Below are positions 2,866 through 51,686 of a stretch of DNA of 57,596 nucleotides, piece by piece. The DNA comes from Candidatus Omnitrophota bacterium (lineage in GTDB: Bacteria; Omnitrophota; Gorgyraeia; Gorgyraeales; Gorgyraeaceae), in contig JABMRA010000087.1 in the NCBI GenBank assembly GCA_013202925.1, positions 1 to 57,596 on the forward strand, written 5' to 3'. The position numbers and the translations under genes are program-made. Numbering within the stretch: the stretch's first letter is position 1; each line of letters begins with the position of its first letter. The notes under the pieces were generated by a model. The model worked only from the letters and a program-made list of their open reading frames with translations. It was not told where the DNA came from and did not search any database.

Positions 2866-2874
2866 TGGTATAAT
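2866..2874 (+). promoter_or_regulatory. extended -10 promoter element (TGGTATAAT) upstream of tRNA-Ala
   Basis: TGnTATAAT at 2866-2874. It matches the extended -10 form seen at the other predicted promoters in this window. The -35 is poor (TTGTAG with a 20-nt spacer). Confidence 0.35.
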
Positions 2875-2975
2875 AAAATTTGTTTCATAAATTTTAAGGT
2901 ATTTCAGCAGCTACAATCCTCCTATTCGTCGGATTGTTTAACGCTGCTTCAATATCAAATTTGTTTCACAAATTT

Positions 2976-3051
2976 GGGGCAGTAGTTCAGTTGGGAGAAC
3001 GCTACGTTCGCAACGTAGAGGTCGCGGGTTCGAATCCCGCCTGCTCCACCA
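2976..3051 (+). tRNA. tRNA-Ala (anticodon CGC)
   Basis: Hand-folded cloverleaf: GGGGCAG/TA/GTTC-AGTTGGGA-GAAC/G/CTACG-TTCGCAA-CGTAG/AGGTC/GCGGG-TTCGAAT-CCCGC/CTGCTCC/ACCA. The G3:U70 alanine identity pair is present and CCA is encoded. Confidence 0.9.
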
Positions 3052-3198
3052 ACGTAGTTTATCAAGGGATTTGAAACGAGCGAACGCCGAGCGAATAGCG
3101 AGGAAAAGGCCGCAATCCGCGGCCGGCAGTGAGCGAGGTGAGTCTACGCAGTCCGAGCAATCCGCGAGGGCGAAGTAGACGAATCCCGCCTGCTCCAC
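3052..3198 (+). repeat. tRNA-trailing conserved element, copy A (about 128-nt core plus a 19-nt direct repeat of the tRNA-Ala T-loop-to-acceptor 3' end)
   Basis: CGAATCCCGCCTGCTCCAC at 3031-3049 (inside the tRNA) recurs at 3180-3198. The intervening core aligns almost base-for-base with 18813-18914 downstream of tRNA-Met. It contains the hairpin GGCCGC-AATCC-GCGGCC (3108-3124). Confidence 0.6.
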
Positions 3199-3277
3199 TG
3201 TCCTGCGCTCAAACAGAGTGAATCTTCGCAGCATGCTACGGACGGTAAACCATTAAACATAAAGCGAAGGAAAGATA

Positions 3278-18651: not shown

Positions 18652-18680
18652 TTGTCATGATTCGAGTTAGGTGGTATAAT
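18652..18680 (+). promoter_or_regulatory. sigma70-type promoter of tRNA-Met
   Basis: TTGTCA (18652-18657), 17-nt spacer, TGGTATAAT (-10 at 18675-18680), 11 nt upstream of the tRNA 5' end. Confidence 0.55.
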
Positions 18681-18691
18681 TATTTTTCTAT

Positions 18692-18768
18692 GGGCCCATA
18701 GCTCAGTTGGTTAGAGCACCTGACTCATAATCAGGGTGTCCAAGGTTCAAGTCCTTGTGGGCCCACCA
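18692..18768 (+). tRNA. tRNA-Met (anticodon CAT; elongator-type, could alternatively be lysidine-modified tRNA-Ile2)
   Basis: Hand-folded: GGGCCCA/TA/GCTC-AGTTGGTTA-GAGC/A/CCTGA-CTCATAA-TCAGG/GTGTC/CAAGG-TTCAAGT-CCTTG/TGGGCCC/ACCA. G1:C72 is paired, so it is not an initiator. Confidence 0.88.
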
Positions 18769-18935
18769 TATTGTCATAGTAGTTGTAGTGTTTGGACCTG
18801 TAAGGACTTGAAGCGAGCGAGCACCGAGCAAAGCGAGGAAAAGTCCGCAATCCGCGGACGACAGCGAGCGAGGTGAGACTACGCAGCCCGAGCAATCAGC
18901 GAGGGCGTAGTAGCCAAGTCCTTGTGGGCCCACCA
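18769..18935 (+). repeat. tRNA-trailing conserved element, copy B (about 146-nt core plus a 21-nt direct repeat of the tRNA-Met T-loop-to-CCA 3' end)
   Basis: CAAGTCCTTGTGGGCCCACCA at 18748-18768 recurs at 18915-18935. The core is homologous to 3076-3179. Hairpin GTCCGC-AATCC-GCGGAC (18843-18859) shows a compensatory change relative to copy A. Confidence 0.6.
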
Positions 18936-19021
18936 TCCGCCACCAAAGGTGGCGAGATGGTGAGGTCTCGCCCTCCGTCAAAGGCAGAGAGGCGGACCCA
19001 CCAATCCGCCGTAGGCGGATT

Positions 19022-19136
19022 GATCCTGAGGATGCGACGAATAGTAGCATCCGAAGGACCTTCAAAGACGATTAAGGTCCTTCGGTGCCTAAAATGCTTA
19101 TTATTCATTCGCATTTTTTAACGGCACCTCAGGATC
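19022..19136 (+). ncRNA. candidate structured RNA (10-bp closing helix enclosing three hairpins) in the tRNA-Met/tRNA-Val spacer
   Basis: GATCCTGAGG (19022-19031) pairs with CCTCAGGATC (19127-19136). Inside are GATGC..GCATC, CCGAAGGACCTT..AAGGTCCTTCGG (12 bp), and TGCC[AAAATGC..GCATTTT]GGCA. Function unknown. Confidence 0.4.
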
Positions 19137-19157
19137 AAATTTTGCTTCGCAAATTTG

Positions 19158-19234
19158 GGGCGATTAGCTCAGTTGGTTAGAGTGCTGCCCTCACATGGCA
19201 GAGGTCACTGGTTCGAGTCCAGTATCGCCCACCA
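19158..19234 (+). tRNA. tRNA-Val (anticodon CAC)
   Basis: Hand-folded: GGGCGAT/TA/GCTC-AGTTGGTTA-GAGT/G/CTGCC-CTCACAT-GGCAG/AGGTC/ACTGG-TTCGAGT-CCAGT/ATCGCCC/ACCA. Confidence 0.88.
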
Positions 19235-20011: not shown

Positions 20012-20423
20012 GATATTTATAGACGGTGCTTCAAGAGGAAATCCCGGGCCTTCGGGCATAGGCATAGTATTCTTCGACGACAAAAAGAACGTCGTTAAAA
20101 AAATATTTAAATTTATAGGGAATGCGACAAATAACGTTGCGGAGTATACCGCGTTTATCTACGCATTGCAGGAGGCGCTTATAGATAGATATGAAGATGT
20201 AAAGATCGCCTCAGACAGTGAATTGTTGACCAGGCAGCTCAGAGGAGAATATAGAGTTAAAAACGAGAATCTAAAACCGTTTTACGATCAGTTTTTACAT
20301 CTTTCGCGAGGATTCAACAGGATCGAGGTAGTTTCAATAGGCAGAAAAGATAATAGCATAGCGGATAAACTCGCCAACAAGGCAATAGATTCGCGGGTAG
20401 ACGGTTCATTAAAAATTGAATAG
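19983..20423 (+). CDS. rnhA: ribonuclease HI
   Basis: IEIFIDGASRGNPGPSGIGIV, NNVAEYTAFIYALQEA, SDSELLTRQL and NSIADKLAN carry the DEDD catalytic-residue context of RNase H1. The ATG at 19983 (or TTG at 19998) is preferred over the track start at 19950. Confidence 0.8.
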   Translation: MWRTALKSIEIFIDGASRGNPGPSGIGIVFFDDKKNVVKKIFKFIGNATNNVAEYTAFIYALQEALIDRYEDVKIASDSELLTRQLRGEYRVKNENLKPFYDQFLHLSRGFNRIEVVSIGRKDNSIADKLANKAIDSRVDGSLKIE

Positions 20424-20785
20424 GCGCAGGTTGGATGGTCGCCTCTGTCTTTAGACAGGGGAGGAAAGTCCGGGCTCCACAGGGTAGCATAGCGGGTAAT
20501 GCCCGTCTCCGCCAAAAAAACACGGCGGAAGGATTAGAGCCACAGAGACGAGTCTGAGAGGCGTTTTATGGTAACGTAGTAGCTTAAGCGTACGTTGCCT
20601 GCTTTTCAGGGTGAAACGCGGTAATCTCTATGCGGAGCAAAACCAAATAGGTCTCGCTAGGAAGAACGGCCCGTTCAGTAGAGCGAGACGGGTAGGTTGC
20701 ACGATCCCGGCAGCAATGTCGGGGCAAGATAGATGACTATCATCCGCCAAATGCGGAGACAGAACCCGGCTTACAGGCCTGCGCC
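20423..20785 (+). ncRNA. rnpB: RNase P RNA, bacterial type A
   Basis: P1 GGCGCAGG (5') pairs with CCTGCGCC (3'). Universal GGAGGAAAGTCCGGGCTCC (P4 5' strand) at about 20458-20477 and ACAGAACCCGGCTTAC (P4 3' strand) at about 20758-20773. Confidence 0.9.
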
Positions 20786-20801
20786 GTATTCATCCAACCC
20801 C

Positions 20802-29259: not shown

Positions 29260-30987
29260 ATGAATGCGATCAGACTGGAAAATGTAGGTAAGAGGTTTAT
29301 ACTGACGCACCAGGGGGATAGTGCGACGAGAGGTTTTTTTCATTCTTTCCCTGGGCAGAAAATAGCCACTGAATTCTGGGCCTTAAGAGATATAAGCATG
29401 GAAATCGAAAAAGGCAGGGTGATCGGTGTAATAGGAAGGAATGGGGCAGGCAAGAGCACGCTGTTAAATTTACTCGCCGGGACATCGTCACCTACAAAAG
29501 GCAAGATTGAGATCAATGGCAGGGTTTCCAGTCTCCTTACTCTAGGAGCTGGTTTTCAGGATGAATTAACGGGAAAAGAGAATATATTCCTCAACAGTTC
29601 TATTCTAGGAATGAGCCGTAATGAGATAAATAAAAAATATCGCAGCATTGTGGAGTTTTCCGAACTGGATGGATTTTTAGATTCTCCGCTTCAGGTGTAT
29701 TCTCAGGGAATGCGGCTGCGTTTGGGTTTCAGCGTGGCCATTCATGTGGATTTTGATATCTTGCTGATTGACGAAATCCTGTCCGTGGGAGATGTATCAT
29801 TTCAGAAGAAGTCCTTTGACAAGATAGAGCAGCTCAGGAAACAGGGAAAAACTATGGTTGTCGTTACTCAGTCATTGGACATTGTTGAGAGGTTTTGCGA
29901 AGAGGCATATTTATTGGAGAACGGCGAAGTTGTTGAAAATGGAAATCCACAGAAGGTCGCCGGCCGCTATATAGAGCTATTAAGTGAAAAGAAGTTGCCT
30001 GAGACATTCCGGCAGAGATACGGAAATCTGAAATGGTGGGCTGATAAAAGGTTCTGGGATATGAGGGAGGGGAGCAAGGAGGTGCGGATTGTTGATGTCA
30101 GGATGTTTAATTCGCAGAAAAGAGAGACAAATCGATTTAAATCAGGAGAAAAGGTTACTGTCAAGGCCCAGTTTGTAGTAGATGAAGAGGTTAGCGAGCC
30201 CCATTTTGGTATAGCTATATTCCGCGAAGACGGACTTTATTGCTACGGGCCAAATACATTATTCGACGGCCATAAAATAGATAAACTTAACAAAGGAACA
30301 GGTTTTTTTGGCGTCGAGTACAAATCCTTGGATCTAAGGCCTGGTAAATATCGTTTTTCTATTGCCATCTGGGACAAAAACGAACTCTGGGCCTATGACT
30401 ATCATGTCGGTTTTTATAAATTTGAGATTACTGGTGAAGGCAGCGATGGGGAGTTGCTAAATTTAAAATATAGGTGGGAGCCGGAAAATTGGTGGCAAAG
30501 GTTTAAGATACCGCAGCTAGAAAAGACGGATCCCCTCCCCATTTTAAATCCTCATATGCAAGACAATATCTTATCTCCAGATATGGAGCTTGCCTCGGTT
30601 GAAATTTTAGATTCGTCAGATAATGTAAAGTCAGTTTTTAAAACCGGAGAGGATATCAAGATAAAGATGCGGTTTAAATACCTTAAAGAGCCCCATGACT
30701 CTTATCTATGGCTAGGATTATTTCGCAGCGATGATGTATATTGCCACGGGGTATCAAAAAGATTAAAAGAGGATGAGATTGTATTGGCCTATCCTCAAAT
30801 GCCCCTATTAACCGGAGACTATTATCTATCCGTAGGTGTATGGAAAAAGGATAAAAAGGAACCTTTACTGTATGGATATAAGCCGTCTTTATTTAAGATG
30901 TCTTTTTTGGGCCAGGACCACGGGACAGTATATCTAGAACATTCCTGGAATTGGGAACTTCCAAAGAATATAAAGGAGGATGCATAA
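29260..30987 (+). CDS. wzt: polysaccharide ABC transporter ATP-binding protein (Wzt/TagH-like) with two tandem C-terminal beta-sandwich (Wzt_C-like) domains
   Basis: Walker A GRNGAGKSTLL, signature YSQGMRLRLGF, Walker B ILLIDEIL. Two similar C-terminal segments follow, at aa 272-392 (VRIVDVRMFN..KSGEKVTVKAQF) and aa 441-560 (ASVEILDSSDN..KTGEDIKIKMRF). Confidence 0.85.
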   Translation: MNAIRLENVGKRFILTHQGDSATRGFFHSFPGQKIATEFWALRDISMEIEKGRVIGVIGRNGAGKSTLLNLLAGTSSPTKGKIEINGRVSSLLTLGAGFQDELTGKENIFLNSSILGMSRNEINKKYRSIVEFSELDGFLDSPLQVYSQGMRLRLGFSVAIHVDFDILLIDEILSVGDVSFQKKSFDKIEQLRKQGKTMVVVTQSLDIVERFCEEAYLLENGEVVENGNPQKVAGRYIELLSEKKLPETFRQRYGNLKWWADKRFWDMREGSKEVRIVDVRMFNSQKRETNRFKSGEKVTVKAQFVVDEEVSEPHFGIAIFREDGLYCYGPNTLFDGHKIDKLNKGTGFFGVEYKSLDLRPGKYRFSIAIWDKNELWAYDYHVGFYKFEITGEGSDGELLNLKYRWEPENWWQRFKIPQLEKTDPLPILNPHMQDNILSPDMELASVEILDSSDNVKSVFKTGEDIKIKMRFKYLKEPHDSYLWLGLFRSDDVYCHGVSKRLKEDEIVLAYPQMPLLTGDYYLSVGVWKKDKKEPLLYGYKPSLFKMSFLGQDHGTVYLEHSWNWELPKNIKEDA

Positions 30988-30988
30988 A

Positions 30989-33900
30989 ATGAAGAAGAAT
31001 TATCCTAACGTAGGCATAATCACGGTAAATTTCAATGGCAGGAAACACCTCAAGGAACTCTTTGATTCTGTCTTTCGCCTGCAATACCCAAAAGATAAAA
31101 TGGAAGTCATCCTTGTGGATAATGCCTCTACAGATGATTCAGTTAGATTTGTGAAAAAGAATTATCCTAAGGTAAGGATTATAAAAAATGACGTTAATAA
31201 TTACACTAAAGCAGTTAATTTAGGAATAGACTCAGCAGAAAAGGCTGAATATGTAGCATTGGTGAATAATGACACCAGGATGTCTAAGAATTGGCTTGTA
31301 GAGCTCATAGGCGTAATTTCTAAAGATAAGAAGATTGCCGCAGTCGGCAGTAAGATATTAAATATGAAAGGCAAGGTTCAGAACGCAGGCCATTATGAGC
31401 TCCCTAATTTTTACTGGGGAGAAAGGGGCGCTGGACAGAAGGCCAAGAGGTATACCACCGTTGAAGAAGTGCCCAGTTTATGCGGCGCTGCAGTGCTATA
31501 CAGAAAGGACCCCCTTTTTGAAACAGGCTTATTTGATGAAGACTTTGTCATATACGGTGAGGATGTGGATATGGCTTTAAGATTGCGGAAAAAGGGTTAT
31601 AAGCTGATGTTTGTTCCAAAGAGTATTATTTATCATGAATTTCATGGCACAGCCAGCGAAGACCTCGCTCATTATTATATTGAGAGGAATAGGTTGCTAT
31701 TTTTGGCAAAGCATTATCCATATAAGTTGAGTAACAGTCTTTTGGGAAGCGGATATTTTACTGCAGAAAAATCCATTGATTCCTGCAGCAAGATTTATTC
31801 CATATTTCCCGATGTAATCAAGAAGTTAATCAAGGCCCACCCGTTGGATATAGCAAGCGAGGTTGCCTCAGAGGTATTTGAAGAGATGGGCAAGATTATT
31901 AATTATGAAAATGATTTACTGGCAAAAGAGATAAACAAGATTACGGAAGACAGAAACAATACGTATCTTAACCACGCCCATGTGCTTAAAAAATTGGAAG
32001 AGGAAACAAGTAATGTTTTCAAAAAGGATAAGGAATTATCAGCGCTAAGGGATAAATACAGCAATCTTTCCGAACAACTCAAAAGTCGAACAGGCGAAGC
32101 TTCTCGTCAGCTCAAGATTATTTCAGATAAAGAAAAAGAGATCTCCACTCAGCTACGCCAGAGGATGGACGAGGTCCTTATAAAGGACGGACAACTAATT
32201 GAAAAGGATAGCCATATTACTGGTCTAGGCAATCAAATCAACCAATTAAATGCAGAGGTCCAAGAACACCTAAATTCTCTGCAAGCTAAGGAGTCTCTCT
32301 TAGCCGAAAGAGAGGCCGATCTTACCAACCTCAGGAATGAACTAAACAATATCTCCACTCAGCTACGCCAGAGAATGGACGAGGTCCTTATAAAGGATAA
32401 CCATATCACTGGTCTAGGCAATCAAATAGTCCAATTGAATTCACAGATAGCTGTCCTTAAAGAAGAGCTTGATAATCTTTCTGATCAGCTTCACAGAAGA
32501 ATGGACGAGGTCTTGTTAAAAGACAGTGAAATAAATTGTCTAAAAGACGAACTCAGTGGAATCTATAATTCAGAAGGATTTCGCTTTGTCCTACGTCCTC
32601 TCTGGACCATTCTTTGGCATTCACGTAAATTTTTGAGGGCAGCAAAAAGAAAACTAGGTCAGGCGTTCTGGCTAACAATTACAATTATATTGACACCAGT
32701 TTTCATAGTTTTAAGTTTATGCTTTTTCCTTGAGCACATAACCTGGTCTATCCTTAAACCATTGCTGAAAAGGGTATCCCCAAAAAGAAAAATAATGCCG
32801 ATCAAGGATAGTAAAATAAGCCTGGTTATGCCCAATTACAATGGAGTTGATTGCCTGAGGGAATGTCTTCCTTCTGTCTTTAGCGCTGATGGCTTCACTG
32901 ATGGCCAGAATGAAGTGTTGATAGTCGACGATGGAAGCACAGACGGAAGCGTGGATTTCATAAGAGAGCATTTTCCGCAAGTCAGGCTTATTCAGAATAA
33001 TAGGAACAGAGGGTTTGGTTTTACCTGTAATAGAGGCGTGAAGAGTGCCAGAAACGAGATCGTGGTTTTAATAAACAACGATATCATCCTGACCAAGGAT
33101 TTTCTGCAACCTTTAGTCGGCCATCTTCAAAAAGAGGATGTTTTCGCGGTGACCCCAAAACTCTACGCCTGGGACAGAAAGACGTTTAATTGGGGGATGC
33201 ATATGGGCCACTTTAAAAAGGGCTATATAAGTCTATGGAACGAGGCAGAGACGGGAAACGGAGATAGGATTAGTCAAACCTCACCTTCAATATTTGCCAT
33301 TGGTGGAGCAATGGTATTCAGAAAAAGTGACTTTCTCTGGCTGGGCGGGTTTGACAGTATCTATCGTCCGAATTGCTGGGAGGATATAGATATCTCTTAT
33401 CAGGCGTGGAAGAGGGGGCTGAAGGTCTTATATGAGCCAAAAAGCCTTATGTATCACAAGGCAAGGGCGACCCTTACTTATGAAAGGCCGAAGGAGATAA
33501 AGAATGAGCTCTTGTTTACATGGAAGAACATCACTGACTCCGAGATATTGAAGGATCATTTGAATCTATTGCCTATGAATTTCTATCGGAATAGACTTAA
33601 CTTCCTGAAGGGCTTTTTTTGGGCATTAGATTATTTGCCGCAGATGCTTCTGCACCGTCTTCTTAATAGAAGCTATTTAAAGGCCAGCGACAGGGGCATA
33701 TTCAGCAACTGTATGCGTTACTACAGGAATTTCATGCGACGCGGTTTTCGTCATTTAGAGGAGAACGAGAGGAAGAAAGTGCTGCTCATCACCCCATTTA
33801 TGCCTTATCCGCTTAAGCAGGGCGGAAAAATAAGGATCCACGCGTTGGCATCCCTGCTTAAAGATAAATTTGATATATCCCTCTTGGCCCTGATCCATCA

Positions 33901-36900
33901 TAAGGGAGAAGCGGATTACGCGCTTGAGCTGAAAGGGGTATTCAGGGATATCCACACCGTATATCCCAAGACAGATATAAAGAGTAGATTATATCCCCAG
34001 CGCTATAAATATGCGCACAGTCATGCCCTGATCGATAAGCTCAAAGAGATCCAGAAAAATCAACCGATCGACCTTATCCAGATAGAGTCAAATGAGTTAT
34101 TGTATCTCGTCAATTATGTAAAACACATCCCTATCATCTATACCGAGCACGATTCAAGCGTTTTGTTTTTCAGGGACTCTTACTATCAGATAAAGGACGG
34201 GACGGCCTTTTCTAATCTATTTGACTACCTCAAGAGGGTGCGCCTGCATCATTCGCTTTATAAGAAGTTAGACAGGGCCATATTGTTATCCCGGGAAGAC
34301 GAGGAGGTCCTGCGCCCATTTTTCCCCAAGACCAATTTCTCTTTTATTCCTACAGGAGTCGATATCGAGAAGTTTTCGTTTGTCCACCCCGACAGGCCTA
34401 AGGCAAAGAGATTGATTTATGTGGGTCATTATCCGCACTATCCAAATGAGGATGCGGTCATATATTTTATAAAAAAAATATTCCCCCGCATACAGAAGAG
34501 GATTCCGGAGATCGAATTTTTAATAGTCGGCTCAGGCCCTACGGAGAAGATTAAACAGATCTCTAATCAGCACAATATCAGGCTGATACCTGACGTGGAG
34601 GACGTGTGGTCGTATCTTCGCGAGTCAGCGATCTTTGTCAATCCGATAAGGATCAGCGCAGGCATCAAAGGCAAGGTCCTGGAGGCAATGGCCGCTGGCA
34701 TACCAGTGGTTTCTACAAGGGTCGGGTCGTCAGGTATAATGGCCAGAAACAAACAGGAGATCCTGATAGCAGATACGCCTTCTGCCTTTGCTCGCGCCGT
34801 AATAAAACTCTTAAAAGACGACACTTTGTATTCCGGACTTGCACATAATGCGAGGAATCTGGTTGAACAAAAATATGACTGGTGCAGGATATCGCAGTTA
34901 TTGAGCCAGGCCTATGACGAGACCATGGCATTTGATGCCTTGTCTCCGGTCAAGGAAGAGATGTCTTTCGATAAGATCGTGGATTTAAGCAACAGGATCG
35001 TAGAAGAGGCGGTCGAGAAAGGCAGGTTTTGTTCCGGCTTTAAATACGGGCCGGAAGAGCTGCATATAGAACTTACATATCGCTGCGACAGCAAGTGCGT
35101 CATGTGCGACCTCTGGGATCAGCACATAAGAGTCCCCAAGCAGGAAAAAGAGATGACCCTGGACGAGATCAGGAGATTTGTAGATCAATCGGAACATCTA
35201 AAAAAGATAAAGACAGTGGTCTTGTCCGGAGGCGAACCTTTTCTCCGCAAGGATTTAATAGAGATCAGCGGTTATTTTATAGAAAGATTTCCTGGTATTT
35301 CCCTGGGGATACTTACCAATGGGATCAACACAAAGGCCATAATCAAAACCACAAAAGAGATCATAAAGAGGCACAGGCCAAAGAATATCTGGCTGGGCAG
35401 TTCTCTCGATGGTATTGGCGAGGCGCACGACAGGATCAGGGGGAAGAGAGGGGCGTTTTCTGCCATTGAAAAAACCATCCAGGTCTGCAAAAAAGAAGGC
35501 ATAAACATCACCCTTACCTTTACCCTCTCAAGCAGGAATTACGACCAGTTGATTCCCGCGAAGAGGTTTGCCGAAAGCTACGGCATAGAGTTTTACATCC
35601 AGTTTGTAGTACCTAAAGAGACCAGGGAAAAAGGCGTTTTCAGCTTTACGCCTACTCAGTTAAAGAGGATCGAAGCCGATCTCCATAAGATGATGCAGGA
35701 AGAAATCAAAGATGTGGATTATCAAAGGCTTTCAAGGGAGCTTGAGAGCGATTCTTACCAGGGCCTTGTAGGAAAATTATATTACCTTTCGAACCTTGTA
35801 AGGTATCAAAAAAATCCAAAGAGATATTTCAGAAAATGTGTAGCAGGGACAAAGTTTGCGATGTTTTCGCCGTCCGGGGATCTGTATTTCTGCCCGGGGC
35901 TTAAAAATGGCAGTGTGGGCAGTATCCGAAAAGAGAAGTTCGACAGTCTTTGGACTTCAAAGAAGGCAGATAGCATAAGGGAGTTTATCTCGCATGAGCT
36001 CTGTCATTGCTGGCTGGTCTGCGTCGTCTTTCCGGTCATAGACCAGGCACGTTCATCCATAAAGGGCGCTGCTGAAAAGGATACGCTCGATATCTTAGTA
36101 AAGACAGAAGATAGAAAGGAAAAGATAGCCGCCTTTTTAGAAGAGGATATGCGCCTCGCGGAGAAAAACAGCAGTCTTAACGAAAGAGAATATCGCCTCG
36201 GGAAGATCGACCTGGAATCAACGCCGCAGGGCATCGGCATAGGCGCGCACTGGAAGTGCGATGCCAATTGCGTCTTTTGCCTGGGCGGTCATCCCAGACT
36301 TTTCGATCTAAATACCTATAATCAGTTCTTCGAGAGGAGGCTTTTTAATGTCCTGCCAAAGGCGGAATTTATAAACCTCTGCGGTTTTGGAGAGCTGCTC
36401 CTGATGCCCCGCTGTGACGAATTCCTGGATTACATGAACAAGAGCCTTCCGTTCAGCAACAAGATACTTACCACAAACGGCACAGCTTTGTCAGACAGGA
36501 TCAATCAAAGATTGACCGAGGGCAGGTATAGTGTGCAGATCTCTTTACATGCTTCAGAAAAGAGATTGCATAAGACGCTTACCCATATGGATTCCTTTGA
36601 CCGGATCATTGAACAGACACGGAACCTCCTTGAGATCCGGAAGAAACAGCAATCCCCGTCTGTAAATCTTGTCTCCGTGGTCAATAGTTTAAACATAGAG
36701 AATCTGCCTCAGCTCGTTGAATTCGCCGCTAAATTGAGAGTGGACAGCGTACTTGTTAATTATATGACGATATACAGCCCGGCGCATCTGAAGCTGTCAT
36801 GTTTCTTCAAGCAGAAGATCACCAACCGTATGTTTTCCATGGCAGAGGAAAAGGCGTCCAAGCACGGGCTTTCATTGACGCTCCCGCCGAAGTTTGGGGG

Positions 36901-37213
36901 CAACGGCAATGGTTCAAAATATCCAAGATGCTCTGATCCATGGAAATATCTCTACGTGGAGACAGAGGGCTCTATCCTGCCGTGCTGTTATGCAGGGGCC
37001 CATATCGGATATCTTTATAGAGATGACTTCCAGGAGGTCTGGAACGGGGAATTCTATAGAAATCTAAGAAAGTCATTGGCAGAGGGAAGGGCAGAGGGGT
37101 GGTGTAAGTACTGTTACAAAAACAAACCCTCGAATGTAAACGATATCCGTTCGCATGTGAGTTTCAGGCCTGATCTGCAACAGAAGATCCTGAAAGGGGT
37201 TAGCCTCAAATGA
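30989..37213 (+). CDS. giant multidomain protein: GT2, coiled-coil, TM, GT2, GT4, radical SAM, radical SAM/SPASM-like
   Basis: Residue numbers follow the track ORF that starts at 30980. GT2-A aa 10-235 (IITVNFNG..VDNASTDDS..YGEDVDM). Coiled coil aa about 300-530. TM aa 561-585. GT2-B aa 612-835 (VMPNYNG..VDDGSTDGS..WEDIDIS). GT4 aa 932-1310 (GIKGKVLEAMAAGIPVVST). rSAM-1 CDSKCVMC, first Cys at nt 35084, then GGEPFL. rSAM-2 CDANCVFC, first Cys at nt 36257, with the C-terminal Cys cluster CSDPW..PCCYAG..WCKYC. The ATG at 30989 sits about 9 nt after AAGGAGG and is preferred to 30980. Confidence 0.85.
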   Translation: MKKNYPNVGIITVNFNGRKHLKELFDSVFRLQYPKDKMEVILVDNASTDDSVRFVKKNYPKVRIIKNDVNNYTKAVNLGIDSAEKAEYVALVNNDTRMSKNWLVELIGVISKDKKIAAVGSKILNMKGKVQNAGHYELPNFYWGERGAGQKAKRYTTVEEVPSLCGAAVLYRKDPLFETGLFDEDFVIYGEDVDMALRLRKKGYKLMFVPKSIIYHEFHGTASEDLAHYYIERNRLLFLAKHYPYKLSNSLLGSGYFTAEKSIDSCSKIYSIFPDVIKKLIKAHPLDIASEVASEVFEEMGKIINYENDLLAKEINKITEDRNNTYLNHAHVLKKLEEETSNVFKKDKELSALRDKYSNLSEQLKSRTGEASRQLKIISDKEKEISTQLRQRMDEVLIKDGQLIEKDSHITGLGNQINQLNAEVQEHLNSLQAKESLLAEREADLTNLRNELNNISTQLRQRMDEVLIKDNHITGLGNQIVQLNSQIAVLKEELDNLSDQLHRRMDEVLLKDSEINCLKDELSGIYNSEGFRFVLRPLWTILWHSRKFLRAAKRKLGQAFWLTITIILTPVFIVLSLCFFLEHITWSILKPLLKRVSPKRKIMPIKDSKISLVMPNYNGVDCLRECLPSVFSADGFTDGQNEVLIVDDGSTDGSVDFIREHFPQVRLIQNNRNRGFGFTCNRGVKSARNEIVVLINNDIILTKDFLQPLVGHLQKEDVFAVTPKLYAWDRKTFNWGMHMGHFKKGYISLWNEAETGNGDRISQTSPSIFAIGGAMVFRKSDFLWLGGFDSIYRPNCWEDIDISYQAWKRGLKVLYEPKSLMYHKARATLTYERPKEIKNELLFTWKNITDSEILKDHLNLLPMNFYRNRLNFLKGFFWALDYLPQMLLHRLLNRSYLKASDRGIFSNCMRYYRNFMRRGFRHLEENERKKVLLITPFMPYPLKQGGKIRIHALASLLKDKFDISLLALIHHKGEADYALELKGVFRDIHTVYPKTDIKSRLYPQRYKYAHSHALIDKLKEIQKNQPIDLIQIESNELLYLVNYVKHIPIIYTEHDSSVLFFRDSYYQIKDGTAFSNLFDYLKRVRLHHSLYKKLDRAILLSREDEEVLRPFFPKTNFSFIPTGVDIEKFSFVHPDRPKAKRLIYVGHYPHYPNEDAVIYFIKKIFPRIQKRIPEIEFLIVGSGPTEKIKQISNQHNIRLIPDVEDVWSYLRESAIFVNPIRISAGIKGKVLEAMAAGIPVVSTRVGSSGIMARNKQEILIADTPSAFARAVIKLLKDDTLYSGLAHNARNLVEQKYDWCRISQLLSQAYDETMAFDALSPVKEEMSFDKIVDLSNRIVEEAVEKGRFCSGFKYGPEELHIELTYRCDSKCVMCDLWDQHIRVPKQEKEMTLDEIRRFVDQSEHLKKIKTVVLSGGEPFLRKDLIEISGYFIERFPGISLGILTNGINTKAIIKTTKEIIKRHRPKNIWLGSSLDGIGEAHDRIRGKRGAFSAIEKTIQVCKKEGINITLTFTLSSRNYDQLIPAKRFAESYGIEFYIQFVVPKETREKGVFSFTPTQLKRIEADLHKMMQEEIKDVDYQRLSRELESDSYQGLVGKLYYLSNLVRYQKNPKRYFRKCVAGTKFAMFSPSGDLYFCPGLKNGSVGSIRKEKFDSLWTSKKADSIREFISHELCHCWLVCVVFPVIDQARSSIKGAAEKDTLDILVKTEDRKEKIAAFLEEDMRLAEKNSSLNEREYRLGKIDLESTPQGIGIGAHWKCDANCVFCLGGHPRLFDLNTYNQFFERRLFNVLPKAEFINLCGFGELLLMPRCDEFLDYMNKSLPFSNKILTTNGTALSDRINQRLTEGRYSVQISLHASEKRLHKTLTHMDSFDRIIEQTRNLLEIRKKQQSPSVNLVSVVNSLNIENLPQLVEFAAKLRVDSVLVNYMTIYSPAHLKLSCFFKQKITNRMFSMAEEKASKHGLSLTLPPKFGGNGNGSKYPRCSDPWKYLYVETEGSILPCCYAGAHIGYLYRDDFQEVWNGEFYRNLRKSLAEGRAEGWCKYCYKNKPSNVNDIRSHVSFRPDLQQKILKGVSLK
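32141..32540 (+). repeat. about 210-bp periodic intragenic repeats encoding the coiled-coil (ISTQLRQRMDEVLIKD...HITGLGNQI.QLN)
   Basis: ATCTCCACTCAGCTACGCCAGAG(G/A)ATGGACGAGGTCCTTATAAAGGA at 32141 and 32351. A third degenerate copy (CAGCTTCACAGAAGAATGGACGAGGTCTTGTTAAAAGAC) lies near 32487. Confidence 0.75.
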
Positions 37214-38805
37214 AAATAGCCCTTGTTCAATGTCCGGGATGGGGAAGAGACTGCCCTCCTTATAGCCTGGCACTTTTTTCTGCCATATTGCGCAATGCCG
37301 GCCATAAAGTTTCCTGCTTTGACCTAAATATCGCCCTTTATTGCAGCGGCCCAGAGAAATATCAAAGGTTCTGGGACGATAAGGATCTTTATAGTTTCTG
37401 GTCTAGCAAGGATTTGGTAGAAAAGTTTCTACAGGATAATAATAAGATGGTTGAATTTCAAGTCGAGCAGATTCTTGATACAGACGCAAGGATAATCGGC
37501 TTTACAGTGCATTTCAGCTCGCTTCTTGTAAGCCTGGAGATTGCGAGGAGGATCAAAGCGGCGGACAGGAAAAGGATTATTGTTTTTGGCGGTTCAGACT
37601 GTTGTCGCCAATTAAGAGGATTCGAGCTTATAAAAGAGGATGCGGTGGATATAGTCAATGTGGGCGAGGGCGACCTTAGCATCCTGGAATTGGTTAAGCA
37701 AGTGGAGACCAAGGGTGAAGTCGATTTTCTGAAGGGCGCCCTGGTCAAGAAAAATGGCAGTTTTATTGATTGCGGGGATATAGATGTAGTAGGCGACCTT
37801 GATAAGCTGCCCTTTCCTGATTATTCTGACTTTAGCGATGATATATCAGCAGGCATTTACAGGCAGCCTGAAAGGCTCGAGATACTGGATAGCCGCGGTT
37901 GCCCTACCAGGTGCCATTTCTGCAGCGAGTGGCAGTTCTGGAAGCGCTTTCGCTCCATGAGCGGGGAAAGGATGTTTGCCGAGATATCCTATCAGGTAAA
38001 AAACCATCCAGGCGTTGACTATTTTTATTTTATTGGTTCATTGCTCAATGGCAACATCAGGGCCCTGTCTGATTTTTGCGACCTTGTGATCAAGAACGGC
38101 TTGAAGATAAGATGGCTGGGTCAGCCGGTTATCAGAAAAGAAATGACAAGGGAATTTTTACAAAAGATGAGAAAGGCGGGCTGTGAGTGGCTTGGTTATG
38201 GCATTGAGAGCGGTTCCCAGAGGGTAGTTAACAGCATGAACAAGAAATTTTCATTAAAATTAGCGGAACAGGTCTTAAAGGATACTCATGACGCTGGCAT
38301 CATGGTCCAGGCGAATTTCATGTTCGGGATACCTACCGAAACAGAAAAAGATTTCAAAGAGACATTGAGTTTTTTGAAAAGGAACAGGGGTAGTATGGAT
38401 TCTGTCCTGGCGAGCCAGTCCTTCTGTGTCATAGACAAGGACACCTATCTTTACAATCATCCCGCAGAGTTTGATATAACAGACAGGGAGCACCATCTTT
38501 ACTGGGAATCAACAGGCAGTACCTATCCAGAGAGATTTCGTAGATACGAAGAATTTTGCAGATTAGCGCTGTCGCTGGGGATCCCTGAGACCTCAGGCGT
38601 GCTAAGAGTGAAGCCAGATAAGTGGAGGCTTTTAGGAGATTATTATTTATATAAGAAAGATTATCCAAAGGCAATAGATTGTTTTCATAAGGCACTGGAG
38701 GTCGAATCGCAGGAAGATTCTATATTGGAGAAGATCAATCATTGTCAGCAGAAGCTGGAGGGGTTAAGTCGTGACTATGCTGGAGTCCGCGAAGCAGGGG
38801 CTTGA
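37210..38805 (+). CDS. B12-binding domain radical SAM protein with C-terminal TPR-like tail
   Basis: MKIALVQCPGWGRDCPPYSLALFSAILRNAGHKVSCFDLNI, rSAM SRGCPTRCHFC (first Cys near nt 37900), YGIESGSQRV, and tail LGDYYLYKKDYPKAIDCFHKALEV. ATGA overlap with the giant gene. Confidence 0.85.
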   Translation: MKIALVQCPGWGRDCPPYSLALFSAILRNAGHKVSCFDLNIALYCSGPEKYQRFWDDKDLYSFWSSKDLVEKFLQDNNKMVEFQVEQILDTDARIIGFTVHFSSLLVSLEIARRIKAADRKRIIVFGGSDCCRQLRGFELIKEDAVDIVNVGEGDLSILELVKQVETKGEVDFLKGALVKKNGSFIDCGDIDVVGDLDKLPFPDYSDFSDDISAGIYRQPERLEILDSRGCPTRCHFCSEWQFWKRFRSMSGERMFAEISYQVKNHPGVDYFYFIGSLLNGNIRALSDFCDLVIKNGLKIRWLGQPVIRKEMTREFLQKMRKAGCEWLGYGIESGSQRVVNSMNKKFSLKLAEQVLKDTHDAGIMVQANFMFGIPTETEKDFKETLSFLKRNRGSMDSVLASQSFCVIDKDTYLYNHPAEFDITDREHHLYWESTGSTYPERFRRYEEFCRLALSLGIPETSGVLRVKPDKWRLLGDYYLYKKDYPKAIDCFHKALEVESQEDSILEKINHCQQKLEGLSRDYAGVREAGA

Positions 38806-39850
38806 CGAGAAACAAAAAAAGATTATTCAGGCCCTGAGTAAGCGCGATCTAAAGAAAAAACTGGAGAATTTTGTCCTCGTAGAAGAAGAAAAGGCAAGAA
38901 GAGAGGAGATCGTCTCTGGTTATCCCTACTGGCTCATAATCGATCCGGTTAATTTCTGCAACCTCAAATGCCCCTTTTGTCCTACCGGGCAGGAGAGGGG
39001 GTCGCGAAAGAGGGCAATACTTTCTTTTGACAATTTCAGGAAGATAATAGATGAGATAGGCCCTTACCTGATCCATATAGATTTCTGTAATTGGGGCGAG
39101 CCTTTTCTGAACAGGCAATTGCCGGAAATGATCAAATATGCCGAGAGGCATTATGTTGATACCAAGGTCGACACCAACCTTAATCTTCTCACTGAGGAAG
39201 ACGCTGAGAAAATAGTCCTCTCCGGACTTGATAAGATCATCGTATCCATAGACGGTATAACGCCCGAGACCTATTCTCGGTACAGGGTAGGAGGGGATTT
39301 TGATAAGGTCATGGAAAATCTCGGGATACTGGTCAAGAAGAAAAAGGAGCTCAAAAAGGCCACGCCTTATATCACATGGCAGTTTTTGGTGTTCAGGCAT
39401 AATGAGCATGAGGTAGAAGAGGCGAAAAAGATAGGTTGTGACTTAGGCGTAGACCACGTAGGTATTACCAAGGCATTTATTGGCGAAAAAGATTGGATCC
39501 CTTTAAACGAGGAGCTAAGCAATTACAGGCAGGAAGGACTAGGCAGCGGCTACACATCAGACGGCCTCAAGAAACCGCAGGGTACAATGTGCAACTGGCC
39601 CTGGGAGGCAATAACAATGAATCCCAATGGCTCTGTTTCGCCCTGCTGCTCTGTTGAAGACGAGAAAGATGACTTTGGCAATATCTTCCAGCAGCCATTC
39701 AGAGAGGTGTGGAATAATGAGAAATACAGGATGGCAAGGAGATATATCAAGGATAACGCGACGCAGGTTACGGGTGAGAATATCTGTGTAAACTGCGGGC
39801 ATTCAGGGATGATCAATATAGATATACTTTCGTGCCACAGTTTATTTTAG
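38771..39850 (+). CDS. radical SAM / SPASM domain protein
   Basis: DPVNFCNLKCPFCPTG (first Cys at nt 38957), NWGEPFL, and C-terminal SPASM-like CNWPWEAITMNPNGSVSPCCS...CVNCGHSG. GTG start at 38771 lies 7 nt after GGAGGGG. ATG at 38777 is the alternative. Confidence 0.8.
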   Translation: MTMLESAKQGLDEKQKKIIQALSKRDLKKKLENFVLVEEEKARREEIVSGYPYWLIIDPVNFCNLKCPFCPTGQERGSRKRAILSFDNFRKIIDEIGPYLIHIDFCNWGEPFLNRQLPEMIKYAERHYVDTKVDTNLNLLTEEDAEKIVLSGLDKIIVSIDGITPETYSRYRVGGDFDKVMENLGILVKKKKELKKATPYITWQFLVFRHNEHEVEEAKKIGCDLGVDHVGITKAFIGEKDWIPLNEELSNYRQEGLGSGYTSDGLKKPQGTMCNWPWEAITMNPNGSVSPCCSVEDEKDDFGNIFQQPFREVWNNEKYRMARRYIKDNATQVTGENICVNCGHSGMINIDILSCHSLF

Positions 39851-39978
39851 CGCAGATAAAACAAAAAATGTTTAAACAAATCAGTATCTAGTTATTTGTA
39901 AAGTAGTAAAAGATTTACAAATTCCCAGTGTTAAAAGGTCTCTAGCCATATTTTAACTGATTTATTAAATAGTGACTT

Positions 39979-41676
39979 ATGAATGCACGCGGTTTTCTTA
40001 GCAAGTTCGATAGAAGAGAAGTTGTTACTTTGTTATTGTTTGTTTCCGTTTATCTGGTGTTAGAATTGAGCCAAATTAAACTTCCTGGCTTATATTGTGA
40101 TGAAGCACATGATGCAGTAGGAACCTTACAAATTATGAAACATGTCAGTAGTGGATATTTGCAATCTATCCAATTTTTTGGTAGATATTTTCCATTGGTA
40201 AGGGGCACTTATCACGGCGCAGTAGGTTCTTATTTTATACTGCCATTTTTTTTGCTATTCGGAGTTAATATTGTCTCTCTACGACTTATGCCAATATTTA
40301 TCGGTATATTAACCTTAGTGTTTACCTATCTTTTTTCAAAGAGATTTTTTAGTCAGAAAGTGGCGTATTTAACAATTTTATTATTGGTTATCAGTCCAAA
40401 TTTTATCCTAGGGACAAAATTAGGCAATGATAATGGCTCTATAATGCAAATGATGTCCATGGCAAGTTTGTTTTGCCTTTTAATGTGGTACAGAAAGAAA
40501 AAGAATATTTTATTTTATACAGGTATGTTTTTCCTTGGTCTAGGCATTGCTACAAGGATTTGGTTTTTCTGGTTTATTGTCGCGCTCTTTTTGGCCAGTC
40601 TAATTTATATAAAAGATATTAATGAAATGATACGGAAAAATAAGCTAAATTATTTTAACCTATTTTTAGCAGGAATATTTGCTTTTTGTCTTGGTGCTTT
40701 TTTAATTATCTGCTTTAATTTTAAACATAATTTCATTACTTTAAGATACATCCTTTCCCATGCTGGCCAGAGTGTCGAGGGGGTCAGTAACCTTGATTAT
40801 TTTAATAATTTACTAATACGTATCCAGGATCTTGTTGTTTTGCTTAAAGAGCAATGGTTCGCATGGGTGATAGTAGGGTCTAAGGGGAATGAGCTAAGAT
40901 ATATATCCAGGAATGATCTTTGTCTTTGGGCATTTAACCTTTGTTTAATTTGGTTAGTTTTTTCTATTTTATTTATTAGAAAAAAGAGAGACATAAAACA
41001 GAGGAAAATTTTATTTTTATTATTATTGGTCTCTTTTATTTTTCTACAAAGCCCAATTACTCTTAGAGCTTTTGGGGGAAGTCACCTATTTATTTTATTT
41101 CCACTTTTACAATTGGTAATAGGTCTTGCGTTAGTCGATATGGTAAATTTTTTCAAAGGTAGTAAATTACTCGTTGCTGTAATCTCAAGCATTTTATTGG
41201 TGTTAATAATAACCGATCTGAATGTAATTATAAAAGAGTATTCTCGTCATAAAGAAACTGGAGGAGGCCCTAGTTATTCTGATAGTATAAATCAACTTGC
41301 CAGGTGGCTAAAGGAAAAAGAGATCGCTGTTCCTCTGGCTATGGATTGGGGATTGTGTCATAACCTTATTGTTCTTACAGATGGCAAAGTAAGGCCCCGA
41401 ACTTTTAGATATATTGAGGAGAGTGGAATTATTGAACCTGAACTAACATTAGTCAGAAATGAATTTATTAAGGATTTAAAAAAAGAAATAGAGGATAGAG
41501 ATAGATTGTTTTTGATTTTTCGCGCTCCCGAGATTAGTAATCGTGACCGCCATGATGATGTTTTGAAGATAACCAAAGAAACAAATAGGGATTATATTGA
41601 GGAAAAGAGATTTTACAGCAGAAATGGCCAGTTGATATATTTAGTCAATTCAATCAATTTATTAACTGATAAATAA
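39979..41676 (+). CDS. GT-C fold membrane glycosyltransferase (GT39/ArnT-like), strongly AT-rich gene
   Basis: 565 aa with about 12 TM helices. N-terminal PGLYCDEAHDAV loop, and a soluble C-terminal domain of about 130 aa. Hand-counted lines give about 30% GC, against about 45-50% in the flanking genes. Confidence 0.65.
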   Translation: MNARGFLSKFDRREVVTLLLFVSVYLVLELSQIKLPGLYCDEAHDAVGTLQIMKHVSSGYLQSIQFFGRYFPLVRGTYHGAVGSYFILPFFLLFGVNIVSLRLMPIFIGILTLVFTYLFSKRFFSQKVAYLTILLLVISPNFILGTKLGNDNGSIMQMMSMASLFCLLMWYRKKKNILFYTGMFFLGLGIATRIWFFWFIVALFLASLIYIKDINEMIRKNKLNYFNLFLAGIFAFCLGAFLIICFNFKHNFITLRYILSHAGQSVEGVSNLDYFNNLLIRIQDLVVLLKEQWFAWVIVGSKGNELRYISRNDLCLWAFNLCLIWLVFSILFIRKKRDIKQRKILFLLLLVSFIFLQSPITLRAFGGSHLFILFPLLQLVIGLALVDMVNFFKGSKLLVAVISSILLVLIITDLNVIIKEYSRHKETGGGPSYSDSINQLARWLKEKEIAVPLAMDWGLCHNLIVLTDGKVRPRTFRYIEESGIIEPELTLVRNEFIKDLKKEIEDRDRLFLIFRAPEISNRDRHDDVLKITKETNRDYIEEKRFYSRNGQLIYLVNSINLLTDK

Positions 41677-41768
41677 CTATCAGTAAGATTTATGATTATT
41701 TAATGTCAAATATTTTAATGAAAGAGTTTGAATAGTTTATTGGAATTTATAAAAGGATTGTATTTACA

Positions 41769-44468: not shown

Positions 44469-44471
44469 AAA

Positions 44472-48190: not shown

Positions 48191-48211
48191 AAGAGTCGCT
48201 TAAATAAAGCA

Positions 48212-50107: not shown

Positions 50108-50191
50108 GATGCATGCTTGTAGATAAGGAAGAATACTGGCCGGCTTACTGGAGCAGCCCTAACAGCCTTAATTTAAAAGGGAAAGAATAAA

Positions 50192-51640: not shown

Positions 51641-51686
51641 GAGAGTCAAGCAGTGAAAGGCTGGGCTATTGCTGCGGGAGACTAAG

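Follow-up and report, generated by a model that had tools for sequence, protein, structure and literature searches.

Two of the three tRNA genes in the 57,596-nucleotide (nt) contig JABMRA010000087.1 of a Candidatus Omnitrophota bacterium (assembly GCA_013202925.1, forward strand; this whole stretch is called the window below) are followed by the same small non-coding element, copy A behind tRNA-Ala(CGC) and copy B behind tRNA-Met(CAT). The tRNA genes were called by ARAGORN and the Rfam tRNA model, and the parts of both loci are collected in Table 1. On the tRNA strand, the order of the parts is the following: (i) the intact tRNA with its CCA, (ii) the element 5' end, (iii) a segment complementary to the T-loop and T-stem of that same tRNA (anti-T), (iv) a conserved core, (v) a second copy of the local tRNA from position C56, and (vi) the native trailer. 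The tRNA-Ala repeat, CGAATCCCGCCTGCTCCAC, lies within the tRNA at 3031-3049 and recurs at 3180-3198, exactly where a sequence-only reading of the window had placed it, and the tRNA-Met locus carries a 22-nt exact repeat, CAAGTCCTTGTGGGCCCACCAT; both begin at C56. The alignment of the two inserts seen in that reading was also recovered, the cores of copies A and B sharing 86% identity across 104 core columns with a single 2-nt indel between them, and a 24-base core pattern matched twice in the window versus 0 expected from 100 shuffles.

Table 1. Positions of the element parts, their host tRNAs, the predicted helices of copy A, and other RNA genes in the window
Feature	Position	Strand	Description	Basis
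tRNA-Ala(CGC)	2976-3051	+	Intact, CCA encoded; host gene of copy A	ARAGORN; Rfam tRNA model, 72 bits
tRNA-Ala C56-A76, upstream copy of duplicated segment	3031-3051	+	Exact repeat over 3031-3049	
Copy A 5' end (..GTAGTTTATC)	3052-3063	+	Counterpart of the GYGTTT.. 5' ends elsewhere; junction 1-2 nt past CCA	Left-end comparison, alignment
Copy A anti-T segment	3064-3075	+	5' strand of closing helix, partner 3180-3188	
Copy A conserved core	3076-3179	+		Covariance model, 146 bits; RNAalifold; eight-copy pair counts; single-sequence folds
Closing helix (predicted)			Anti-T with first 8-9 nt of second copy	
Hairpin 1 (predicted)	3087-3103		CCGAGC-GAAUA-GCGAGG, tandem G.A	
Hairpin 2 (predicted)	3108-3124		GGCCGC-AAUCC-GCGGCC, perfect	
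Joining strand (predicted)			..CAGYGAGCGAGGUGAG, 17 nt, almost invariant	
Long arm (predicted)	3142-3180		CUAC/GUAG stem, 3x3 purine-rich internal loop, distal hairpin with tandem G.A	
tRNA-Ala C56-C74, downstream copy	3180-3198	+	First 8-9 nt form 3' strand of closing helix; remainder a single-stranded tail	
tRNA-Met(CAT)	18692-18768	+	Intact; host gene of copy B	ARAGORN, Rfam
tRNA-Met locus, upstream copy	18748-18787	+	C56-A76 plus T (exact repeat 18748-18769), then native trailer ATTGTCATAGTAGTTGTA (18770-18787)	
Copy B 5' end (GTGTTTGGACCTG) and anti-T	18788-18812	+	Anti-T TAAGGACTTGAA at 18801-18812	
Copy B conserved core	18813-18914	+	Helices as in copy A; hairpin 2 with U-A for G-C	Covariance model, 141 bits
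tRNA-Met C56-A76 plus T, downstream copy	18915-18936	+	Exact repeat	
tRNA-Val(CAC)	19158-19234			ARAGORN/Rfam
RNase P RNA	20423-20789			Rfam

The element is a member of a family of ~125- to 130-nt non-coding insertions found so far only in one Candidatus Omnitrophota clade. Described earlier as having two members, which holds within the window, the family counts eight copies overall, as six further ones occur in other Candidatus Omnitrophota assemblies (two of them partial, cut by contig ends). With a covariance model trained on five copies, the complete copies score 138-152 bits; the scan with such a model that the sequence-only reading had proposed gave nothing beyond the family copies in the window or in ~300 kb of related contigs. 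A scan of one genome per species contributed three more copies, all from Candidatus Omnitrophota (L001, L002, and L003 below), and the other three (L004, L019, and L024) came from loci orthologous to those of the window. Assemblies and samples carrying the family are, besides the assembly of the window, GCA_975039995.1 (CDGNAR01), JAHJHC01, JBHPHW01, 3300032737 and 3300013089 (JGI), and SRR27205362-66 and SRR11548473 (Logan). The copies outside the window lie behind tRNA-Ser(GGA) (L001, JAHJHC010000059), behind tRNA-Thr(UGU) (L003, JAHJHC010000044), behind tRNA-Met in a 98% relative (L024, = L025, L026) and, as a partial copy, in an 89% relative (L019), and behind tRNA-Ala in a 90% relative (L004, = L005), again as a partial copy. 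The last is an orphan on the minus strand of a single-cell assembly (L002), a source type in which chimeras are common; it has no upstream tRNA, and its tail resembles a tRNA-Asn 3' end. The hosts are therefore tRNA-Ala (two very different sequences), tRNA-Met (three strains), tRNA-Ser(GGA), and tRNA-Thr(UGU), plus the orphan. Seven of the eight copies sit at a tRNA 3' end, four with the upstream tRNA in the contig and three placed by their second copy, and the element has the orientation of the tRNA in every copy with a visible upstream flank. Six different tRNA sequences are followed by the ~105-nt core, which is 77-91% identical between copies and always bounded at C56. This distribution, together with the lack of terminal inverted repeats of its own, speaks against a randomly inserting repetitive extragenic palindromic (REP) sequence or miniature inverted-repeat transposable element (MITE), in agreement with the sequence-only reading. 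Not every tRNA is occupied, since only one of the two in L001 carries the element.

Outside this clade, the searches were negative. Rfam 15 holds no family for the element, either at the gathering threshold or at E<=1; the window matches only tRNA and RNase P RNA, and the elements of L001-L003 remain uncovered at E<=1. A core pattern validated on all five copies then known had no match in JGI metagenome contigs or viral contigs, a second core pattern had none in viral contigs, and blastn of the element against plasmid and phage records returned nothing. Six viral matches to a 16-base core pattern were set aside as chance, none of them fitting the covariance model. The full-length, integrase-bearing element that had been suggested as a possible relative was not found around the core in the viral, phage, plasmid, and representative-genome collections. 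A weak covariance-model match in the contig L028 (11164-11260, 12.8 bits, E=0.15), located in a 450-nt gap after the RNase H gene, was also rejected as chance; the corresponding gap in the window is occupied by RNase P RNA. Several short-read contigs start or stop inside the element, as expected of a multicopy repeat.

The junctions of the element are asymmetric. The boundary between core and C56, at T-loop position 55/56, is identical in all eight copies, the core beginning with (A/G)CGAG.. and ending with ..GTAGN, whereas the 5' junction varies, lying directly after A76 for Ser and Thr, 1-2 nt later for Ala, and 18 nt later for Met. The element 5' end reads G(Y)GTTT.. wherever the copy follows a tRNA and GCCTGG.. 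in the orphan, and the anti-T segment ends with ..GAA. At the tRNA-Met locus, ATTGTCATAGTAGTTGTA also follows the second copy in L019, and the repeat there would thus be ~40 nt long, so that the repeat lengths are 21, 21, 22, and 40 nt with one boundary fixed and the other variable. The extent of the insert given in the sequence-only reading had to be amended accordingly: the first 18 nt of the apparent insert behind tRNA-Met are native trailer, and the duplication, constant in its start at C56, is not fixed at CCA on its other side. The attL/attR-like geometry described there was confirmed, with exact 19- to 22-nt repeats from C56 and an intact upstream tRNA. With a fixed C56 end and a variable 5' junction, the flanking repeat is target-derived, i.e., a duplication of the local target sequence with one fixed and one variable end. 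Moreover, the same locus carries very different tRNA-Ala(CGC) sequences in two lineages (GGGGCAG..CUGCUCC in the window versus GGGGCCA..UGGCUCC in the lineage of L027 and L004), and the second copy is that of the local tRNA-Ala in each of them, while the last 37 nt of the element match at 36/37 positions between the lineages. The distal tRNA-Ala copy lacks the CA of CCA in the window; in L004, it extends to CCA and is followed by the native trailer. As a separate observation, these two tRNA-Ala(CGC) genes (window, 2976-3051; L027, 2026-2099) lie between near-identical flanks, which implies an apparent replacement of the tRNA gene itself at this locus.

Orthologous loci, located through the flanking RsmE, Zn-ribbon, and pilin proteins, establish that the element is inserted and that its presence or absence is polymorphic at the same site among close relatives. 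L027, a relative with flanking genes ~88-90% identical, has a clean empty Ala allele, tRNA-Ala..CGACTCCCGGTGGCTCCACCA|ATCCGAGGAAAGATTATG, which reads through to the gene as ..CGACTCCCGGTGGCTCCACCA|ATCCGAGGAAAGATT-ATG(rsmE). In L004, of the same lineage but from another study, the filled right junction is ..GTAGA|CGACTCCCGGTGGCTCCACCA|ATCCGAGGAAAGATTATG, i.e., ATCCGAGGAAAGATT-ATG. Distant relatives (68-70% RsmE identity) have tRNA-Ala followed by rsmE without the element; L006 has a 15-nt spacer, L011 a different flank of ~170 nt, and L010 also has a different 3' flank at this locus. In L028, a 74% relative, tRNA-Met and tRNA-Val are separated by 21 nt, versus 389 nt in the window. The empty sites that the sequence-only reading had asked for thus exist in close relatives at both loci. 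Even nearly identical strains differ: L023 and L024 are distinguished by 3 of 2118 nt and yet by an ~225-nt indel containing the element, a difference for which neither a clean insertion nor a repeat-mediated deletion accounts. Between the window and L024, the adjacent gene diverges by 1.1% and the element by 8.8%, suggesting that the element undergoes turnover or import rather than quiet vertical descent.

From RNAalifold and pair counts, the predicted structure comprises a closing helix, two hairpins, a joining strand, and a long arm (Table 1). Over the eight copies, 87% of the cells are standard pairs and 11 pairs (21 cells) are changed on both sides, counts that are strong but do not amount to independent events, given related sequences and an alignment fitted to the model. 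None of 500 shuffles reached these counts, and sliding the partners by 1-3 columns left 0-3 double-changed pairs. The compensatory change pointed out earlier in hairpin 2, GGCCGC-AATCC-GCGGCC (3108-3124) becoming GTCCGC-AATCC-GCGGAC in copy B, was reproduced, and the same hairpin is GGCUGC/GCAGCC in L024. Next to the CUAC/GUAG stem, the flanking pair varies among U-A, C-G, and G-C from copy to copy; L002 has a distal hairpin fully rebuilt as GCGUUUG/CAAACGC, and L019 one fully rebuilt as GUCCGCC/GGCGGAC. Folded singly, every complete copy beats its shuffles (z = -2.9 to -5.1), with the closing helix recovered in five of six. On the tRNA-sense strand, the fold has tandem G.A motifs, and five G.U cells versus two A.C cells are counted, which designates this strand as the folding one. 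The strong covariation in the larger alignment and the further copies behind other tRNAs bear out the earlier view of a structured, tRNA-matched element as opposed to chance. Two additional pairings were tried and rejected: a T-box-like pairing of the invariant GGUG with NCCA shows no covariation with the discriminator base, and a kissing interaction between the AAUCC loop and anti-T is not reflected in the Thr copy, where the loops are unchanged. On the opposite strand, hairpin 2 is followed by TTTTCC, a weak intrinsic-terminator-like site (3108-3130 and 18843-18865, minus), the sense counterpart GGAAAAG being conserved. The invariant GAGGUGA (3135-3142, 18870-18877) is complementary over 7 nt to the usual 3' end of 16S rRNA (UCACCUC), with no start codon at a usable distance.

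The anti-T segment ties each copy to its own tRNA. In copy A, GGGATTTGAA (3066-3075) is complementary to TTCGAATCCC, T54-C63 of tRNA-Ala, over 10 pairs with one G.U, as first noticed in the sequence-only reading; in copy B, TAAGGACTTGAA pairs 12/12 with T54-G65 of tRNA-Met, with one U.G, and the pairing can be extended to 19 nt (18794-18812). Scored against T54-N65, the other copies give 12/12 for Ser, 12/12 (one G.U) for Thr, and 9 for the orphan. The T-stem part of the segment is tRNA-specific (CAGGG with CCCUG, AGAGG with CCUUU, UAAGG with CCUUG). Through pairing with the first nucleotides of the second copy, the same segment also closes the whole element into one domain. The 19-nt Met pairing is not general and partly reflects the palindromic GGGCCC of tRNA-Met; a comparable match to the acceptor 3' strand was rejected for the 5' ends of the Ala, Ser, and Thr copies, with only 2-4 of 9-10 positions complementary.

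Promoter-like sites lie upstream of both tRNAs, the one at 18652-18680 being strong and sigma-70-like, with 11/12 consensus positions plus TG, and no sense-strand terminator-like site lies between either tRNA and the next gene, so that the element is probably transcribed together with the tRNA. A coding role was rejected: indels of 2 nt and 1 nt distinguish the copies, and the minus-strand open reading frames (ORFs), 2938-3234 and 18703-19065, overlap tRNA genes.

Altogether, we favor, with somewhat better than even confidence, the reading that this is a non-autonomous mobile insertion element specialized for tRNA genes, mobilized in trans, and for which the folded single-stranded form is functionally important. 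Among the four options raised in the sequence-only reading (miniature non-autonomous element, recombination scar, T-loop intron-like insertion, tRNA-trailer RNA), the mobile element fits best, in view of the empty sites in close relatives and the presence/absence between near-identical strains. We propose that the folded single-stranded form, most likely the sense RNA, is recognized by the mobilizing machinery, and that an enzyme encoded elsewhere would act at T-loop position 55/56, with a template jump or a second, staggered break producing the duplication. The closing helix may sequester the spare tRNA 3' half, which would prevent it from competing with the genuine 3' end in the folding of the upstream tRNA. 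Candidate enzymologies are (i) an RNA-mediated route akin to target-primed reverse transcription (TPRT), (ii) a folded single-stranded DNA (ssDNA) or att-type route, and (iii) a transposase making long duplications. Our preference within the mobile-element reading goes to the RNA route, since a precise junction on one side, a loose one on the other, and a long variable duplication make up the geometry that target-primed insertion would leave.

Several points weigh against this proposal. No mobilizing enzyme was identified, none is encoded near any copy, and no reverse transcriptase could be tied to the element; likewise, no excised or intermediate form was seen. The match of anti-T to each new tRNA is unexplained, as simple transposition would bring along the old anti-T. 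This is the main weakness of every model considered here, each of which needs either pre-specialized lineages or a correction after insertion. Such a correction might proceed through quasi-palindrome template switching, an established route to perfecting imperfect hairpins, or through selection. Under a pure variable-stagger model, it is only by coincidence that the left junction falls exactly at A76 at two or three loci. The difference between L023 and L024 is not a clean insertion or excision, as it involves a duplicated neighboring module and a 3-nt junction discrepancy, and spread between strains could occur by ordinary homologous recombination of flanking DNA without active transposition. 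Finally, the sample is small, with eight copies (two partial) from few related assemblies.

tRNA genes are classic landing sites of prophages and genomic islands, and the first alternative, which we regard as unlikely, is a miniature integrative element moved by a tyrosine or Xer-like recombinase. A circle composed of C56-A76, 5' end, anti-T, and core would cross over in the 21-nt identity block and rebuild the tRNA in the manner of phage and island attP sites, and the helix of anti-T with the second copy would be a folded ssDNA att site mimicking the T-arm, as in CTXphi attP(+) and integron attC. The order of the parts is exactly that of a Campbell integration; the orphan keeps its tRNA-derived tail; the stacked modules behind tRNA-Met (the element and a module X described below), each ending in a tRNA 3' copy, resemble tandem att accretion; and a tRNA-Val insert in L019 has a 27-nt repeat, from the whole T-arm to CCA, typical of an att identity block. 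The folding strand is, moreover, the coding strand of a nearly unidirectional window and probably the lagging-strand template, where ssDNA folds. Nevertheless, each tRNA specificity would need its own lineage, yet two very different tRNA-Ala genes carry 36/37-identical ends with local repeats, and the Met repeat includes 18 nt of trailer. Recombinase genes are missing near all copies, the inverted core-binding and arm sites of attP are lacking while the unpaired strands are highly conserved, and a 150-bp double-stranded circle is mechanically unfavorable.

The comparison with described integrative systems runs along the same lines. With tRNA-targeting integrative elements (tyrosine-integrase islands and prophages) and their derivatives lacking an integrase, the cis-mobilizable elements (among them CIMEs), the element shares the tRNA 3' site, the intact tRNA, a repeat starting in the T-loop (a T-loop sublocation class of tRNA-gene integration sites was reportedly defined by Williams in 2002), tandem stacking, and presence/absence variation. 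Direct repeats and a restored tRNA are found here, but no integrase was detected among the 40 main window ORFs scanned against Pfam, and no larger core-bearing element in the collections scanned. The element also departs from them by its ~130-nt, gene-free make-up, by one core placed behind six tRNA sequences with local repeats, by the antisense of the target T-loop, by a covarying fold, and by repeats of 21-40 nt. Integron attC and CTXphi attP(+) are alike in size (~60-150 nt), in the folding of one strand, in helices of which some are conserved in structure over sequence, and in a stem mimicking a double-stranded site; they differ in that the unpaired strands of the element are highly conserved and its target is the tRNA T-loop, not attI or dif. 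Neither an RYYYAAC box nor R/L boxes (RYYYAAC...GTTRRRY) are present, the second copy starts at C56 without T54 and T55, after GTAGN, and there is no G|TT junction.

The RNA route can be pushed further, to a bacterial RNA-guided retroelement resembling short interspersed nuclear elements (SINEs), in which the closing helix is an RNA replica of the target T-arm segment; we hold this version to be rather improbable. Anti-T would pair with the sense DNA strand of the target and the 3' tRNA copy with the antisense strand, nicked opposite 55/56, and that strand would serve as the primer of a reverse transcription starting at the last core nucleotide. The variable duplication would follow from a second break placed 0-18 nt past CCA. 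The fixed core|C56 junction, the local second copy, the orientation, the RNA-type fold, and the CCA-ending donor copy of the orphan would all be accounted for, and, if true, this would represent a new class of RNA-guided, tRNA-anchored mobile elements mobilized in trans. The invariant core|C56 boundary in eight copies with a variable 5' junction is what TPRT leaves, and, like the eukaryotic non-LTR retroelements using it (SINEs, including tRNA-related ones, and long interspersed nuclear elements, LINEs), the element combines a short, non-coding, non-autonomous nature with one precise and one variable junction, a long variable duplication, and a linkage to tRNA sequence and tRNA transcription units. 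It differs from them by its bacterial host, by the lack of a known partner reverse transcriptase, of an A-rich or repeat tail, and of a tRNA-derived promoter head, and by its position behind a real tRNA.

Still more doubtful is a host-beneficial tRNA-trailer small RNA, serving as a decoy for tRNA 3'-end or T-loop enzymes or toxins or as a processing signal, and spread by ordinary recombination. The purifying selection on the structure and the almost invariant unpaired joining strands would suit it, as would the strand and transcription unit shared with the tRNA (no terminator precedes the downstream gene), and the orphan in L002 is followed by a terminator-like hairpin as an independent RNA gene would be. 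A host gene is, however, unlikely to recur behind six different tRNAs with a target-matched repeat, to be patchy among near-identical strains and missing in relatives at 68-74% amino acid (aa) identity of the flanking genes, or to accompany only some tRNAs (two of three in the window, one of two in L001). The Met copies and the tRNA-Val insert family can form acceptor/T-stem-like helices ending with ACCA, whereas the Ala, Ser, and Thr 3' tails are unpaired and so provide no tRNA-like acceptor end. The same division marks the comparison with tRNA-like structures, t-elements, and tmRNA, which share a 3' end copying the T-loop, acceptor strand, and CCA; the element is unrecognized by ARAGORN and Rfam and has no T-loop in its closing helix. 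The trailer-RNA option of the sequence-only reading survives in part, in that a trailer RNA is compatible with the mobile-element reading if the element is, as is probable, co-transcribed with its tRNA.

Neutral scars or local duplications, left by larger tRNA-integrated islands or by replication template switching, appear very improbable: the attL/attR-like geometry and tRNA flanks rich, in this clade, in other small modules and duplications are in their favor, but a ~105-nt core 77-91% identical behind six tRNA sequences with the same C56 boundary, the compensatory substitutions in 11 pairs, and the lack of any larger core-bearing element in viral contigs, phage records, plasmids, and species-representative genomes all disfavor this option. 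Least credible of all is a T-loop intron-like insertion, with the downstream copy as the true 3' half and the stretch from T55 to the second C56 removed from the RNA, a reading that the repeat formally permits and to which the minimum free energy fold of the Ala precursor, pairing the acceptor 5' strand with the distal copy, lends itself: with its CCA in place, the upstream tRNA is whole as it stands and requires no splicing, the distal Ala copy in the window lacks CA, and no group I, group II, or self-cleaving ribozyme matched even at E<=1; to our knowledge, the core is also too small for known self-splicing introns and bacteria have no archaeal bulge-helix-bulge endonuclease.

Other mobile families are even less alike. 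MITEs and REP/REPIN sequences are small, non-coding, multicopy, hairpin-rich, extragenic, and mobilized in trans, as the element may be. Its ends (GYGTTT.. / ..GTAGN) are, however, not inverted repeats, its duplication is 21-40 nt instead of a fixed 2-10 nt, and the only end-to-end pairing uses the target-derived copy, the left arm changing with the tRNA. Its stem is CUAC...GUAG and not the 5'-GTAG...CTAC of REP, and it is tRNA-associated in a single orientation. Casposons and Cas1-mediated CRISPR spacer integration also duplicate a defined target segment beside a recognized "leader". Some casposons target tRNA-gene 3' ends, with duplications of 14-15 bp, terminal inverted repeats, and genes; the element differs by its 21- to 40-nt duplication and by the lack of terminal inverted repeats and genes, and no Cas1 was found among 40 scanned window ORFs. 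The element thus fits no named family and is novel among tRNA-targeting mobile insertions. By analogy, it would stand closest to tRNA-targeting integrative elements in its site and in what is preserved, and closest to SINEs in size, non-autonomy, and junctions.

We know of no tRNA-gene occupants other than kilobase-sized ones with their own integrase. If mobile by itself, the element would represent a minimal tRNA-targeting system in which the target-copying helix could make recognition programmable; an RNA-mediated route would make it a prokaryotic equivalent of SINEs. In practical terms, it breaks short-read assemblies at tRNA loci, enlarges Omnitrophota tRNA operons, as the Met-Val spacers of L028 and the window illustrate, and is a candidate for a new Rfam family.

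The window itself is ordinary chromosome with nearly all genes on one strand, including type IV pilus genes, rsmE, glycosyltransferases, many radical-SAM enzymes, dnaG, rpoD, RNase HI, and rnpB. No integrase, recombinase, transposase, reverse transcriptase, or Cas1 domain was found by Pfam in its 40 main ORFs, the sole reverse transcriptase-like match being an ordinary RNase HI. A 2077-aa protein (30980-37213) combines several glycosyltransferase domains with radical SAM/SPASM; a long series of genes for radical-SAM/SPASM and B12-binding radical-SAM proteins follows at 37210-53582. Two window proteins that were looked up had no exact match on record. Minor pilins (window, 4-372; L006, 6079-6982) match ComP_DUS, the DNA-uptake-sequence receptor family, the window match (E=5.8e-5) lying just under the Pfam gathering score. 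This resemblance hints that the lineage may be naturally transformable, which could aid the spread of small modules between strains.

Other small modules neighbor the element. A leader module abuts the +1 position of tRNA-Ala in the window (2873-2975) and consists of an ~59-nt hairpin insert (..CAGCAGCTACAATCCTCCTATTCGTCGGATTGTTTAACGCTGCTTC.., 2895-2953) within a 19- to 22-nt direct repeat of the leader hairpin AAATTTGTTTCAYAAATTT (2873-2894 and 2954-2975). L027 has a single leader copy and no such module, and related leader modules precede tRNA-Val in the window (~19020-19157) and tRNA-Ala in L011 (~620-707). A third module family, GTCCTNCGCTCAAAYAGRGTGAATCTTCGMAGYATGCTACGGACGG.., stands directly after tRNA 3' ends (window, 3199-3262; L001, 482-545 and 703-765). 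It follows the second copy of the element in the window, the element in L001, and an element-free tRNA-Ser(UGA) also in L001; missing at the orthologous site of L027 and L004, it replaces the CA of the second copy's CCA in the window. Module X (CCGCCACCAAAGGTGGCGAGATGGTGAGGTCTCGCC...GAGGCGGACCCACCA) comes after the second copy of the element (window, 18937-19003; L023, 1-64; L024, 1-64 and 241-303) and lies on both sides of the element in L024. It ends with an imperfect copy of the tRNA-Met 3' end (GGACCCACCA) and contains ATGGTGAG, nearly complementary to CCCACCAT. Finally, the tRNA-Val of L019 (173-249) is followed at 250-427 by an ~150-nt insert with an unrelated core and the same geometry as the element, then by the 27-nt second tRNA copy, C50 to CCA, and by the native trailer. 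Because GUGGCGA at the 5' end of the insert pairs with the acceptor 3' strand of the second copy, an acceptor stem with a complete T-arm ending with ACCA could form (fold z = -5.7). This insert is missing at the tRNA-Val of L023, L024, L028, and the window, and a related sequence occurs in L010 (5266-5480).

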